This document shows positions 27,305 through 31,348 of a DNA stretch of 64,000 nt, in pieces (the first letter of the stretch is position 1; each line of letters begins with the position of its first letter). Position numbers and translations under genes: made by a program. The stretch spans positions 247,191-311,190 of the forward strand of contig CANTGH010000001.1 of NCBI GenBank assembly GCA_947653235.1, written 5' to 3'. Origin of the DNA: an uncultured Clostridium sp. (GTDB taxonomy: Bacteria > Bacillota > Clostridia > TANB77 > CAG-508). A model generated the notes under the pieces. The model had not been told where the DNA came from and did not search any database. It saw only the letters and a program-made list of their open reading frames with translations.

Positions 27305-27985
27305 CTATGAAACAACCTCTTCGGATGTTTCGTTTGTTTGTGAATCTTGTTCTTCTTTTTCCACAATTTCTAAACTTGCGACAGAAACCTCGTAAGCTAC
27401 TCTTTCTTCAACACTTCCATCTTCATGTTTTTTCTCATAAATTCTGCTTTGTACTCTACCAATTAAGCGTACTTCAGTTCCTACTTCCATGTTTTCACAA
27501 AATCTAGCGTTGCGTCCCCAAGCAATACATGGTATGTAATCGGATTTATTATAAGCACGATTAACCGCTAACAAAATATCCGCAATTTCCCTGCCAAATG
27601 GTGTTTGTCTGTAAATTGGCTTTTTGCAAATATAGCCTAATAGTTTTACTTCATTTGATACTTCTTCTTTGCTTTCTTCTGGATTGACTTGTATAATTTC
27701 TTTCGCAAAAACCGTAAGAATTAAGCGGTTTCTCTCGTTTTCATAATTGTTGTATGAACGAAATTGACCTTCTACTTTTAGGGTATTACCTAATTCTAAA
27801 TTAATTGTTGTTAGTAATCTTTCCGATACAGTAATTGGTATAATATCTACTGTTGAGCTTAATCTTACTACTTCTAAATTAAATAAATAAAATTTCTCTC
27901 CATAGATTTCATGGCTGTATCTTTTCTCACTCGCAACTTTTCCAACCAACACTAAGTGGTTGTTTTCTAAATAATTTGTATTCAA
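27305..27985 (-). CDS. SSB-family protein with two OB folds (TTG start)
   Basis: 226 aa. The second OB fold resembles SsbA (LAVNR, IPCIAWGRNA, GRVQSRIYE). The start TTG is 8 nt after AAGGAGG. Confidence 0.55.
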   Translation of the reverse strand: MNTNYLENNHLVLVGKVASEKRYSHEIYGEKFYLFNLEVVRLSSTVDIIPITVSERLLTTINLELGNTLKVEGQFRSYNNYENERNRLILTVFAKEIIQVNPEESKEEVSNEVKLLGYICKKPIYRQTPFGREIADILLAVNRAYNKSDYIPCIAWGRNARFCENMEVGTEVRLIGRVQSRIYEKKHEDGSVEERVAYEVSVASLEIVEKEEQDSQTNETSEEVVS

Positions 27986-28204: not shown

Positions 28205-29557
28205 TTAGTTTCTAACCAATTGTTTGAATAAATTCCCTCTTTCTTCAAAATTTTTGAAATATTCATAGCTGGAAGCTGCAGGTGATAACACACAAATCGT
28301 ATTTTTTTTCGTAACTTTTTTAGCAATTTTTACTGCTTGTTCTAAATTCTCTACTAAATATACTTTTTTACTTACTTGATTTTTTAAGGTATGATAAATT
28401 ATCTCTCCAGTTTTAGGAAGACAAATGATATGTTCTACCATTGAATTTTGAAGAAATTGAATCAACTCTTGCAAATCAACTCCTCTATCTTTCCCACCTA
28501 CAATTAATGTATTAACTTTTTCAAGTGCCTTTATCGTATAAATGGTTGATTGTGGTATGGTTGCTATAGAATCGTTATAATATTGGACTGAATCAATTTC
28601 ATCCACATATTCCATGCGATGCTGTAAGGTCTCAAAAGTTTCAATTGTTTTAAGGGCTATATCTAGTTCTAAATTCATTTTATCACATACAGCTAGAACA
28701 AACATGATGTTTTGAATGTTGTGTATTCCTTTTAATTTTAGTTTTGTATTTAAATTCATCATTTCTTTCTTGTTACAATATATGTGATTGTTTTGAATAT
28801 ATACGCAATTTTGAGTATCTGTACCCTCTTTTAATGTAATAGCATAATCTGTTGGCTTAAAGATATAGTTTTTCATATTTTGGTTATCATAGTTATAAAT
28901 TAGAATATCTGCTTGTTTTTGATACTTAGTAATGTTATATTTGGCATCTGCATATTGCTCAAATGAATTATAATGATCCAAATGTTCTTCATATAAATTG
29001 AGCCAAATTGCAATATTAGGCGATTGTTTTACATATTGTAAGCTATGAGAAGACAATTCTAGAACAACAATACTATTAGTTTTCAGATTTTCTATACTTT
29101 CCAATATAGGCTCTCCAATATTTCCTAGTAAAAAAGTATCTCTGCCTTGATCTTTTAACACTTGATACATCAAACTACTGGTCGTACTTTTGCCTTTGGT
29201 ACCAGTAATTCCAATCGTGAAACAGTCTACAAATTGTAAAAATAGTTGTAATTGATTGGTTACTTTTTCTTGAAAATTCGTTATGTCTTTATTTTTAAAA
29301 GATAGCCCTGGTGTTTTTAAGATAATATCATATTCTTCTAATCCATTTAAGTATTGCTCGCCCATATTTATTTCTAAGTCAATATCTTCTAAAAATTCTG
29401 GATACTTTTGTAATAAATTGGTTGCTTTATCAGCAATAAACAACTTTTTTTGGGGAAAATTTTTTCGTAAAAAGTCATAAGTTGACTTTCCTTCTATACC
29501 AACACCTAAAATTAAAATTTTTTTATCTTTTAAATATTGTAATAATTTTTTTAACAT
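28205..29557 (-). CDS. MurD-like Mur ligase (UDP-N-acetylmuramoyl-L-alanine--glutamate ligase family)
   Basis: 450 aa with a MurD-type N-terminal Rossmann motif (KILILGVGIEGKS) and the Mur ligase P-loop GITGTKGKSTT. It is not in a dcw cluster. Confidence 0.7.
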   Translation of the reverse strand: MLKKLLQYLKDKKILILGVGIEGKSTYDFLRKNFPQKKLFIADKATNLLQKYPEFLEDIDLEINMGEQYLNGLEEYDIILKTPGLSFKNKDITNFQEKVTNQLQLFLQFVDCFTIGITGTKGKSTTSSLMYQVLKDQGRDTFLLGNIGEPILESIENLKTNSIVVLELSSHSLQYVKQSPNIAIWLNLYEEHLDHYNSFEQYADAKYNITKYQKQADILIYNYDNQNMKNYIFKPTDYAITLKEGTDTQNCVYIQNNHIYCNKKEMMNLNTKLKLKGIHNIQNIMFVLAVCDKMNLELDIALKTIETFETLQHRMEYVDEIDSVQYYNDSIATIPQSTIYTIKALEKVNTLIVGGKDRGVDLQELIQFLQNSMVEHIICLPKTGEIIYHTLKNQVSKKVYLVENLEQAVKIAKKVTKKNTICVLSPAASSYEYFKNFEERGNLFKQLVRN

Positions 29558-30900
29558 TCAAATAAACTCCTTTTCAAGATTTGCTCAAATTCTTCTGGTA
29601 AATTATTGTTTGGATTATATTCTTTTAACATATCCTCTTCTAATAGTTCAAAATGTTCTTGATAATAGTTTAACAAAAATGGTAATTGAAATTTGGTATT
29701 TTGAATGGTTTTTGAAATTGCAAATCGGATTTCTCGGTAAGTCCCAACACATTCAAATGGCTTGTTTTGACTATAGCCACAAAGTTCAATAAAGGTTTGT
29801 AACAATGATTCTTTTTCGAATAAATCTTCGCCGAAAATTGTAATCAACTTTTCACGATATAAAAATGGACTTAAAATAATAAATGCAAATAAACATTTCG
29901 GACAATCACAACACCATTTCCATTGTTTCTCTTTGCTTCCTACATTACAACTTTTAAAAACAGGATGATAGGCTTCTAACTTTGAAAATAATTTTGCAAT
30001 TTGTATTTCACTAATAGGACGAAGTATACTAAAATATTCTGGTCCATTGGGTGTTATATAGTTTGTTACATAATTTCTAAAATCATTTTCAAATTCTACT
30101 GTTTTGGAATATTGATGATTGATATTTTGCCCTTTAATGTTACTTTCATTCGCACTATCTTCATTAGATAATACAATATATTTTTTATCAAAAATAATGG
30201 CAACAAAATAAGTGATGAAAGCAACCAGTGCGGAAAAAGGCGTGTGACCATTTAAAAATCCCTGTTGATTTAGTTCAATTAAATTGGTATCGATTTTTCG
30301 TTCTACCTCGAATATCTCATCTTCTTTTAATTCTGCAATTTCAGCACATTTTCGTGAAACATCTTCTAGATTGATACGAAATCCAAATCGTTTTTGAGAA
30401 CTCTGTTTCAACAATTCCAAGGTAACATTCGAGTCTTTTCCACCACCAATAGGAATGATACAATCTTGTAAATTAGTTTGACATTCCTCTACTTCCCATC
30501 TCTTACCTTCTGAAAATATTTGAACAAAATCTTCCTGCGAAACTTGGATTTTGTTTTTATAACGAAATTCACCTAAACCAAAATAAATGAGCTTTTTAAA
30601 CCATTTTATTTGTTCTTCTTTTAGTTTTCCACATTTTATCCAAAAATATTGGCTACAGGTTGCTTTAAAATAACTAATTGCTTCTATAATTCCAATATGA
30701 AAAGCAACATTTTGAGCTATATTGCTATGCAAATGATTAATTTTAAAATTCTTTTTACGAATTTTTAAGATGGGATTAAATTGCTTTAATCCTTCAATTT
30801 CGAAACAATATTTTAAATAAATATTAGCTTCATCTTCTTCTATTTGATAGTCTTTATAAATAAATGATTTATATTTTTCTTTTAATTCTTCATATTTCAT
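29551..30900 (-). CDS. PP-loop ATP pyrophosphatase family protein, translationally coupled to the MurD-like gene (MurL-like candidate)
   Basis: 449 aa with the PP-loop IPIGGGKDS after a ~150-aa N-terminal domain and a C-terminal Cys cluster WKWCCDCPKC. Its start overlaps the preceding gene's stop (ATGnnTGA). Confidence 0.5.
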   Translation of the reverse strand: MKYEELKEKYKSFIYKDYQIEEDEANIYLKYCFEIEGLKQFNPILKIRKKNFKINHLHSNIAQNVAFHIGIIEAISYFKATCSQYFWIKCGKLKEEQIKWFKKLIYFGLGEFRYKNKIQVSQEDFVQIFSEGKRWEVEECQTNLQDCIIPIGGGKDSNVTLELLKQSSQKRFGFRINLEDVSRKCAEIAELKEDEIFEVERKIDTNLIELNQQGFLNGHTPFSALVAFITYFVAIIFDKKYIVLSNEDSANESNIKGQNINHQYSKTVEFENDFRNYVTNYITPNGPEYFSILRPISEIQIAKLFSKLEAYHPVFKSCNVGSKEKQWKWCCDCPKCLFAFIILSPFLYREKLITIFGEDLFEKESLLQTFIELCGYSQNKPFECVGTYREIRFAISKTIQNTKFQLPFLLNYYQEHFELLEEDMLKEYNPNNNLPEEFEQILKRSLFEC

Positions 30901-30989
30901 ATAATACTTTCTCCTTCTCTAAGGTATTCATAAATGTTTGATTATAATATCAAACATTCGTTCTTTTGTCAATCCCCTTTCTAAATTTT

Positions 30990-31030: not shown

Positions 31031-31348
31031 TTAAGAAGCATGATCTTTATGACTGTATTTAAGTTTTGTTGCCATTCCTCCTCGAATATGCCTTTCTGCT
31101 TTGTTTTCGTCTAGTACTTTGCGAACTTCCATTGCTAAGGTGTAGTTTATGTTGAGCAACCTTTGACTTACATCCTTATGTACCGTACTTTTACTGATTC
31201 CAAATTTTTTAGCTGCTCCACGAACTGTATCTTTTGTATCGATAATATATTGAGCAACTTTTATTGCTCTTTCTTCTATTGATTTTTTACCAGCTCCTGG
31301 TAAATTTTGTGAAACTGAAACTATATTTTTCATAAAGAAAACCCCCAA
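31031..31348 (-). CDS. spoIIID: stage III sporulation protein D
   Basis: 105 aa with the HTH VRGAAKKFGISKSTVHKDV and C-terminal GGMATKLKY, matching SpoIIID. Confidence 0.85.
   Translation of the reverse strand: MGVFFMKNIVSVSQNLPGAGKKSIEERAIKVAQYIIDTKDTVRGAAKKFGISKSTVHKDVSQRLLNINYTLAMEVRKVLDENKAERHIRGGMATKLKYSHKDHAS

Follow-up and report, generated by a model that had tools for sequence, protein, structure and literature searches.

A murL-murD2 gene pair in an uncultured gut Clostridia lineage as a probable MurD2/MurL route to peptidoglycan D-glutamate

Known MurD2/MurL systems and the Clostridium gene pair

MurD2 and MurL of Xanthomonas oryzae (XOO_1320 and XOO_1319) form an alternative route to the D-glutamate (D-Glu) of peptidoglycan (Feng et al. 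2017, reviewed in PMC8788868 and PMC5808125). Orthologues from Micromonospora and Salinispora have been assayed as well (PMC8788868; PMC5808125). MurL was found to consume one adenosine triphosphate (ATP) and to form adenosine monophosphate (AMP) (PMC8788868). Adenylation of the alpha-carboxylate was proposed, and the protein was described as having no known conserved domains (PMC8788868; PMC5808125). The published distribution covers the Xanthomonadales (Gammaproteobacteria), a few Alphaproteobacteria, and rare actinobacteria, with mention of low-similarity homologues in cyanobacteria, a fungus, and an amoeba (PMC8788868; PMC5808125). Firmicutes and Bacteroidetes are not mentioned in PMC8788868 or PMC5808125, and the searchable literature otherwise yielded nothing relevant. 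Here, a gene pair very probably of the MurD2/MurL type is described in a 64-kb stretch of DNA from an uncultured Clostridium sp. (contig CANTGH010000001.1, positions 247,191 to 311,190), which is referred to at its full length as the window.

The first gene of the pair, murL, is an open reading frame (ORF) of 449 amino acids (aa) at 29551..30900 on the minus strand. It is followed on the same strand by murD2 (28205..29557), which encodes 450 aa. A preliminary description of this DNA had placed both ORFs correctly but had the stop codon of the MurD-like gene overlapping the start of the 449-aa gene. The order was found to be the reverse: the 449-aa gene lies upstream, and its stop codon (TAA) overlaps the ATG of the MurD-like gene by 7 nucleotides (nt; ATGTTAA, 29551-29557, minus strand), which suggests translational coupling. 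Moreover, the Shine-Dalgarno sequence of murD2 (GGAG) is located 9 nt before its ATG, inside the upstream murL ORF. Taken with the 7-nt overlap, this Shine-Dalgarno sequence within murL suggests that both proteins are made together and in matched amounts.

This layout is similar to that of the Xanthomonas system, in which the same two protein families are encoded. In X. sacchari, murL is likewise followed by murD2, and the two genes overlap by 20 nt. The X. sacchari pair was found by a tblastn search of a plasmid collection, on a 508-kb replicon where RefSeq annotates murL and then murD. Unlike the published carriers, the host described here belongs to an uncultured, spore-forming gut lineage of Clostridia.

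The preliminary description had also suggested that the pair is of the MurD2/MurL type and that the MurD-like gene lies outside a dcw/mur cluster. The first suggestion is supported by the NCBIfam model NF041275, by Pfam models, by comparison with X. sacchari, by the residue signature of the ligase, and by a phylogenetic tree. The second is true of the 64-kb window, in which mraY, ftsW, murE, murF, murG, murI, and other dcw genes were not found, and neither were a D-amino-acid aminotransferase or a second murD, the window being the scope of this search. The reading preferred here, to which a probability of about 0.8 is given, is that the murL-murD2 operon would perform MurD2/MurL chemistry and provide an alternative route to peptidoglycan D-Glu, by analogy with X. 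oryzae. On this reading the system is the known MurD2/MurL pathway, and the 449-aa protein is already tagged by Pfam models.

MurL homology, predicted fold and proposed mechanism

Sequence comparison identifies the 449-aa protein as a MurL homologue. The NF041275 model matched it with an E value of 8.6e-77 and 258.5 bits, residues 8-416 being aligned to positions 5-411 of the 447 in the model. BLASTP against X. sacchari MurL gave 34% identity over 328 residues (E 2e-58). Precomputed Pfam matches (E <=1e-5) to MurL_N (PF26299) and MurL_epimerase_C (PF26298) were found for this very protein and for each of the 120 homologues listed. No family was returned for it by a local scan against Pfam-A, and the likeliest reason is a copy of Pfam-A that does not contain PF26298 and PF26299. 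Among close homologues, the sole name given by the source was 'hypothetical protein' (P0041).

Alignment of 61 homologues (59 from the gut clade, X. sacchari MurL, and one from Pseudonocardia) revealed 23 invariant positions. These include G153, G154, and D156 of the PP-loop motif IPIGGGKDS (residues 149-157; 30430..30456, minus strand), the predicted ATP-binding and pyrophosphate-releasing loop. Further invariant residues are G218, H219, and P221, then N261, H262, and K266, then S317, C318, and N319, then W329, C330, C333, K335, and C336, and finally C384 and G386. The motifs GGGKDS, NGHxP, NHQxSK, SCN, WCxxCxKC, and KPFECVG are shared with Xanthomonas MurL. Two of the stretches concerned, IPIGGGKDS and WKWCCDCPKC (residues 327-336), had been singled out in the preliminary description, and the invariance of their residues in the 61 homologues places them beyond chance.

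The Cys cluster has the form C318-x11-C330-x2-C333-x2-C336 (SCN...WKWCCDCPKC; 29893..29949, minus strand). All four Cys are invariant, including in Xanthomonas MurL, and they form a probable Zn site of the QueC type, to judge by their spacing in the sequence. A further invariant Cys, Cys384 in KPFECVG (29749..29751, minus strand), is a candidate acid/base residue and may have a catalytic role in alpha-proton exchange.

An AlphaFold2 model of the 449-aa protein, built with 46 homologues, had a mean predicted local distance difference test (pLDDT) score of 92.4 and a predicted template modelling (pTM) score of 0.92. Foldseek matched the model to QatC, QueC, TtuA, and Cap9. The closest solved folds were QueC-family proteins, namely QueC (PDB 3bl5), Cap9 of the cyclic oligonucleotide-based antiphage signalling system CBASS (9nto), and QatC (9y01), which resemble the predicted fold of MurL residues about 145-345. 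The model contains a Rossmann-like alpha/beta fold with an SGGxDS-type loop after the first strand. As in QueC, Cap9, and QatC, the PP-loop opens the first strand-helix unit and a four-Cys cluster with QueC-like spacing is found towards the C-terminus. MurL is thus predicted from the model to have a QueC-like PP-loop ATP pyrophosphatase fold. The preliminary description had called the protein a PP-loop ATPase and had left room for a QueC-like family with no similarity to MurL; the 449-aa protein is a MurL homologue with a predicted QueC-like fold.

Profile search of the PDB agreed with the loop assignment, as the MurL profile matched the SGGKDS loop of TtuA with an E value of 1.7e-4. QueC was found at E 0.54, a level at which membership of the QueC sequence family is undetectable. 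Search with the single sequence gave noise only, and no solved MurL structure was found in the sequence, profile, or fold searches of the PDB. Several features distinguish MurL from the QueC family. Its loop reads GGGKDS and not SGGxDS, and the protein also possesses an added domain of ~140 residues at the N-terminus and a helical region at the C-terminus. Nothing relevant was found in the literature to link MurL to QueC or to the PP-loop, and the assignment of a QueC-like fold is a modest new addition of this analysis.

The PP-loop fold family adenylates carboxylates and releases AMP and pyrophosphate (PPi). A QueC-like fold is therefore consistent with the published use of one ATP by MurL and with the formation of AMP. 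A MurL enzyme would be expected to catalyse a one-way L-to-D epimerisation that depends on ATP and Mg and releases AMP. By analogy, the chemistry of MurL in the gut clade would begin, as in QueC, Cap9, and QatC, with adenylation of a carboxylate and would yield AMP. Its outcome would differ from that of the QueC family, with epimerisation and hydrolysis taking the place of amide or nitrile formation.

A mechanism can be proposed from these comparisons. MurD2 would use ATP to add L-glutamate (L-Glu), instead of D-Glu, to UDP-N-acetylmuramoyl-L-alanine (UDP-MurNAc-L-Ala). MurL would then bind ATP at the PP-loop, adenylate the alpha-carboxylate of the terminal L-Glu, and release PPi. The activated ester would acidify the alpha-proton, which could be removed and then returned from the other face. 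Candidate acid/base residues for this exchange are the invariant His219, His262, Lys266, and Cys384. The substrates, the stereochemistry, the adenylation step, and the roles of single residues in the gut clade are all modelled on the enzymology of the Xanthomonas, Micromonospora, and Salinispora proteins.

The fold also bears on another product. Many Gram-positive bacteria amidate the Glu alpha-carboxylate of the stem peptide, and the pair could make such a modified peptide if the adenylated alpha-carboxylate reacted with ammonia to give iso-glutamine, with or without epimerisation, thereby replacing MurT/GatD. It is in line with this idea that the closest solved folds are QueC-family enzymes, which turn adenylated carboxylates into amides and other adducts. 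On the other hand, all 23 invariant residues are common to Xanthomonas MurL, whose product is the free D-Glu form, and no glutaminase partner is conserved beside the pair. The clade moreover includes Bacteroidales, which are not known for iso-glutamine in their peptidoglycan. Formation of iso-glutamine is accordingly regarded as extremely improbable.

Glutamate pocket of the partner ligase

The 450-aa ligase contains Mur_ligase_M and Mur_ligase_C domains, and its best relatives in the PDB are the D-Glu MurDs of Streptococcus agalactiae, Thermotoga maritima, and Escherichia coli. It is similar to canonical MurD in being a three-domain Mur ligase with a P-loop, the carbamylated-Lys position, and His183, and in its identity of 27-31% to these enzymes. 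The catalytic residues K115, N138, H183, K198, and T321 are kept (E. coli MurD numbering, anchored on K115, H183, and K198). The ligase also passed the murD model TIGR01087 (cut-off 212 bits), on which it reached 352 bits. As the same model gives 298 bits to X. sacchari MurD2, TIGR01087 is blind to the difference between MurD and MurD2.

The residues that set glutamate specificity are known from mutagenesis. E. coli D182, K348, A414, and L416 correspond to E197, R358, P433, and F435 of X. oryzae MurD2 (PMC8788868). The double change E197D/R358K turns X. oryzae MurD2 into a D-Glu ligase, and E. coli MurD accepts L-Glu after the change K319T; a K330T mutant has also been reported (PMC8788868). 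Neither P433A nor F435L changed specificity (PMC8788868).

Alignments placed the corresponding residues of the window ligase, all encoded on the minus strand. Glu191 (28985..28987) is equivalent to E. coli Asp182 and X. oryzae MurD2 Glu197, and Ile331 (28565..28567) stands at E. coli Lys319, the motif reading NDSIAT and not NDSKAT. Arg358 (28484..28486) is equivalent to E. coli Lys348 and X. oryzae MurD2 Arg358, and Tyr431 (28265..28267) to E. coli Leu416 and X. oryzae MurD2 Phe435. At E. coli positions 182/319/348/414/416 the window ligase thus has Glu/Ile/Arg/Ser/Tyr, compared with Glu/Ile/Arg/Pro/Phe in X. sacchari MurD2. The canonical enzymes have Asp/Lys/Lys/Ala/Leu (E. coli), Thr/Lys/Arg/Ala/Trp (S. 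agalactiae), and Asp/Lys/Lys/Ala/Phe (T. maritima). The ligase therefore shares with Xanthomonas MurD2 the Glu, Ile, and Arg at 182, 319, and 348 and an aromatic residue at 416. It differs from canonical MurD by Lys319 to Ile, Asp182 to Glu, and Leu/Trp416 to Tyr, and the canonical D-Glu pocket residues (Lys319, and Asp182 or another non-Glu residue) are not present.

The same pattern was found across 76 ligases whose genes neighbour murL. All of them have Arg at position 348, 74 have Ile and 2 have Leu at position 319, and at position 182 there are 63 with Glu and 13 with Asp. Tyr or Phe stands at position 416 in 74, the other 2 having a gap, and all 76 keep K115, N138, H183, K198, and T321. 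Lys was never found at position 319 in 39 fused ligases. By comparison, it was present in 115 of 115 canonical sequences, a control set that is large but phylogenetically narrow (mostly Enterobacterales and one Bacilli group), as well as in S. agalactiae, T. maritima, and the second ligase of one locus described below (L045second). We propose, from these alignments, that natural loss of Lys319 (NDSKAT to NDSI-x-T) may serve as a signature of MurD2. A model keyed on NDSI-x-T together with Glu182 and Arg348 could separate MurD2 from MurD.

A neighbour-joining (NJ) tree gave a similar picture. The gut-clade ligases were monophyletic in 50 of 50 bootstraps, and the MurL-linked ligases together with X. 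sacchari MurD2 were split from the canonical MurDs in 43 of 50, in a simple tree with thin canonical sampling (Enterobacterales, a Bacilli group, S. agalactiae, and T. maritima). That the window ligase carries residues tied by mutagenesis to L-Glu selectivity, and is of the MurD2 type, is supported by these sequence comparisons.

The ligase could still be an ordinary MurD with specificity for D-Glu, in a genome that might have no other, with the MurL-like protein doing something else with an adenylated carboxylate. It passes the TIGR01087 equivalog model, and RefSeq gives the name of a D-glutamate ligase even to Xanthomonas MurD2; MurL-family proteins on Pseudonocardia plasmids, which have no ligase nearby, also point this way. 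However, TIGR01087 does not discriminate between the two enzymes, and the Glu182/Ile319/Arg348 combination is exactly that of Xanthomonas MurD2 and lacks the Lys319 of every canonical MurD examined. The pairing with murL, often as a fusion, is moreover kept in nearly all loci read (see below). An ordinary MurD is thus considered very unlikely.

The RefSeq name of X. sacchari MurD2 (L090:7136-8572) is an observation in its own right. The naming of L-Glu ligases as D-glutamate ligases is probably a systematic misannotation.

Pairing, neighbourhood and significance

A scan covering one genome per GTDB species found at least 583 confirmed relatives, and gene order was read in the best 80. The metagenome-assembled genomes (MAGs) that hold these 80 loci bear the labels Clostridia, Bacilli, Erysipelotrichaceae, Lachnospiraceae, Ruminococcus, Oscillospiraceae, and Bacteroidales. 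A MurD-family ligase is encoded on the same strand as murL in 77 of the 80. It lies directly downstream in 75 of these, often with an overlap; in L042 a gap of 1.1 kb separates it from murL, and in L071 it forms a single fused protein with MurL. As for the remaining three, L017 and L079 end just after murL, and L034 continues for 6 kb downstream without a ligase. The pair is also carried by a Lachnospiraceae genome that is not a MAG (L089). Among the matches listed, the closest relative is 73% identical and that of Ca. Scatovivens 60%, and the nearby MAGs are labelled Clostridia, Clostridium sp., or Eubacteriales. Identical MurL and ligase proteins recur in several gut-type metagenome assemblies and on an NCBI MAG contig of 311,816 bp.

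An exhaustive search of representatives returned 2607 clusters (50% identity) at E <=1e-3 and 1135 at E <=1e-30, and most of the closest clusters and genomes are from gut Firmicutes and Bacteroidales. Of the top 150 representatives, 40 are fusions of MurL and MurD; MurL comes first in 37 of them and MurD in 3. One further protein among the top 150, P0219 (932 aa), is a fusion of MurL with MurE, the enzyme that uses the MurL product. Two other architectures were seen: P0168 (1247 aa) continues after MurL-MurD with an M20-type amidohydrolase/carboxypeptidase, and P0123 (619 aa) joins a DUF559-like N-terminal part to MurL.

The preferred MurD2/MurL reading is built on direct observations, namely the homology of both proteins, the QueC-like fold of the model, the MurD2 residue signature, and the conserved pairing and fusions. 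Several points weigh against it. The assayed enzymes are those of Xanthomonas, Micromonospora, and Salinispora, and the gut-clade pair is distant in sequence from the Xanthomonas pair. The 449-aa protein falls below the NF041275 equivalog cut-off (258.5 against 700 bits); this model, named MurL_Xanthmoales, was built for and tuned to the Xanthomonadales. Annotated X. sacchari MurL reaches 836 bits on it, and a Pseudonocardia homologue also falls short with 323 bits. BLASTP gave the ligase no more than 22% identity to X. sacchari MurD2, so that overall it is no closer to this enzyme than to canonical MurDs, and identities between the gut clade and X. sacchari MurD2 are 25-32% in the trimmed alignment. 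Ser429 replaces the Pro433 of X. oryzae MurD2, though the aromatic residue at 416 is kept and the P433A change left specificity unchanged. Arg at position 348 is also found in streptococcal D-Glu MurDs and is by itself undiagnostic, and the tree has the thin sampling described above.

MurL-family genes were moreover found without a Mur ligase nearby on three Pseudonocardia plasmids, and the MurL family may therefore not be tied to one function. The examples are L091:4782-6182 (P. alni plasmid pPaSha1), NZ_CP011869, and NZ_CP010991. One of them is the homologue with 323 bits on NF041275, and its neighbour encodes a large WD40-repeat protein. The Pseudonocardia gene may be a paralogue with another substrate.

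The last point against the preferred reading comes from L045, an uncultured Bacilli MAG (MGBC103251). A murD with the canonical signature (L045:3506-4870; 392 bits on TIGR01087, Lys319) was found there 1.1 kb upstream of murL-murD2 (L045:5983-8695). Both ligase loci stand outside a dcw cluster, among genes for Rnf subunits and an LtaS-like gene. This arrangement shows that both ligase types can coexist in one genome. It also raises the alternative that the pair carries out the same chemistry as an auxiliary route, for example one that might be active when free D-Glu is limiting. Against such a role, the published carriers have no murI, dat, or second murD (PMC8788868), and a second murD was found within 6 kb in only 1 of the 80 loci. 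The frequent fusion to MurD and the single fusion to MurE suggest an enzyme of the mainline pathway. In the window, the promoter-like site upstream of murL is of the housekeeping sigma-70 type, and the neighbourhood of the sporulation gene spoIIID is kept in the closest relatives only. An auxiliary route is on balance unlikely, and the preferred reading remains a MurD2/MurL pathway that, unlike canonical MurD, is paired or fused and encoded outside the dcw cluster.

Putative expression signals of the pair lie upstream of murL. The Shine-Dalgarno sequence of murL (GAAGGAG; 30911..30917, minus strand), read directly from the sequence, lies 10 nt before the ATG. Upstream of it, a sigma-70-type promoter-like site (TTGACA-17 nt-TATTAT; 30944..30972, minus strand) matches the consensus at 11 of 12 positions and has a TG before the -10 element. 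By its match to the consensus, this site may act as a promoter. It is located just downstream of a hairpin and T-run that were read by eye after spoIIID. The G+C content is about 27-36%. The window carries housekeeping and sporulation genes, including those for SpoIVA, SpoIIID, MreB, RecD2, a ClpC-like ATPase, TyrRS, FtsY, LigA, RuvB, PolA, MetK, and the ribosomal operons.

Directly downstream of murD2, a 226-aa protein with a single-stranded DNA-binding (SSB) domain is encoded at 27305-27985 (minus strand), with its own promoter-like site at 28080-28052. This neighbour is kept in the 8 closest relatives. An ssb gene is also found 3 kb downstream of murD2 in X. sacchari, which is probably a coincidence.

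On the other side of the pair, spoIIID is intact at 31031-31348 (minus strand). In two other samples with identical MurL (L003:1-3980 and L004:1-2550), the sequence ceases to match the window at 31200, within spoIIID. A large serine recombinase of 516 aa, with Resolvase, Recombinase, and Zn_ribbon_recom domains, is encoded in the DNA past this break. The arrangement resembles a skin-like intervening element, by which spoIIID would be split near codon 50 in some strains. A sporulation-specific role of the pair, considered on account of spoIIID and spoIVA upstream, was rejected as unsupported. The spoIIID neighbourhood is kept in only 2 of the 80 loci, so no sporulation-specific link is seen, and the site resembling a promoter belongs to the sigma-70 type.

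In the reviews of its discoverers, the pathway is described as occurring in relatively few genera and is promoted as a target for narrow-spectrum action on Xanthomonas and Stenotrophomonas (PMC8788868; PMC5808125). From the sequence survey, MurD2/MurL appears to be much more widespread among gut anaerobes than has been published. As the pair was found in at least 583 species-level genomes, with mostly gut Firmicutes and Bacteroidales among the closest, inhibitors of the pathway would also hit commensals. Unhelpful annotation, as 'hypothetical protein' or D-glutamate ligase, means that metabolic reconstructions of gut bacteria without murI may wrongly predict D-Glu auxotrophy. The predicted QueC-like PP-loop fold puts the proposed adenylation mechanism on a definite structural footing and points to residues for mutagenesis. 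A broader view can be put forward tentatively, with a little under an even chance of being right. MurD2/MurL would be a major and perhaps the sole source of D-Glu for peptidoglycan in a large share of gut anaerobes, often as a single fused enzyme; MurL would be a PP-loop/Zn enzyme of the QueC type; and loss of Lys319 would be a hallmark of L-Glu-adding MurDs. The anaerobes concerned may include spore-forming Clostridia, Bacilli/Erysipelotrichales, Lachnospiraceae, Ruminococcus, Oscillospiraceae, and Bacteroidales. If true, the identity of MurL as a QueC-type PP-loop/Zn enzyme would settle how it uses ATP.

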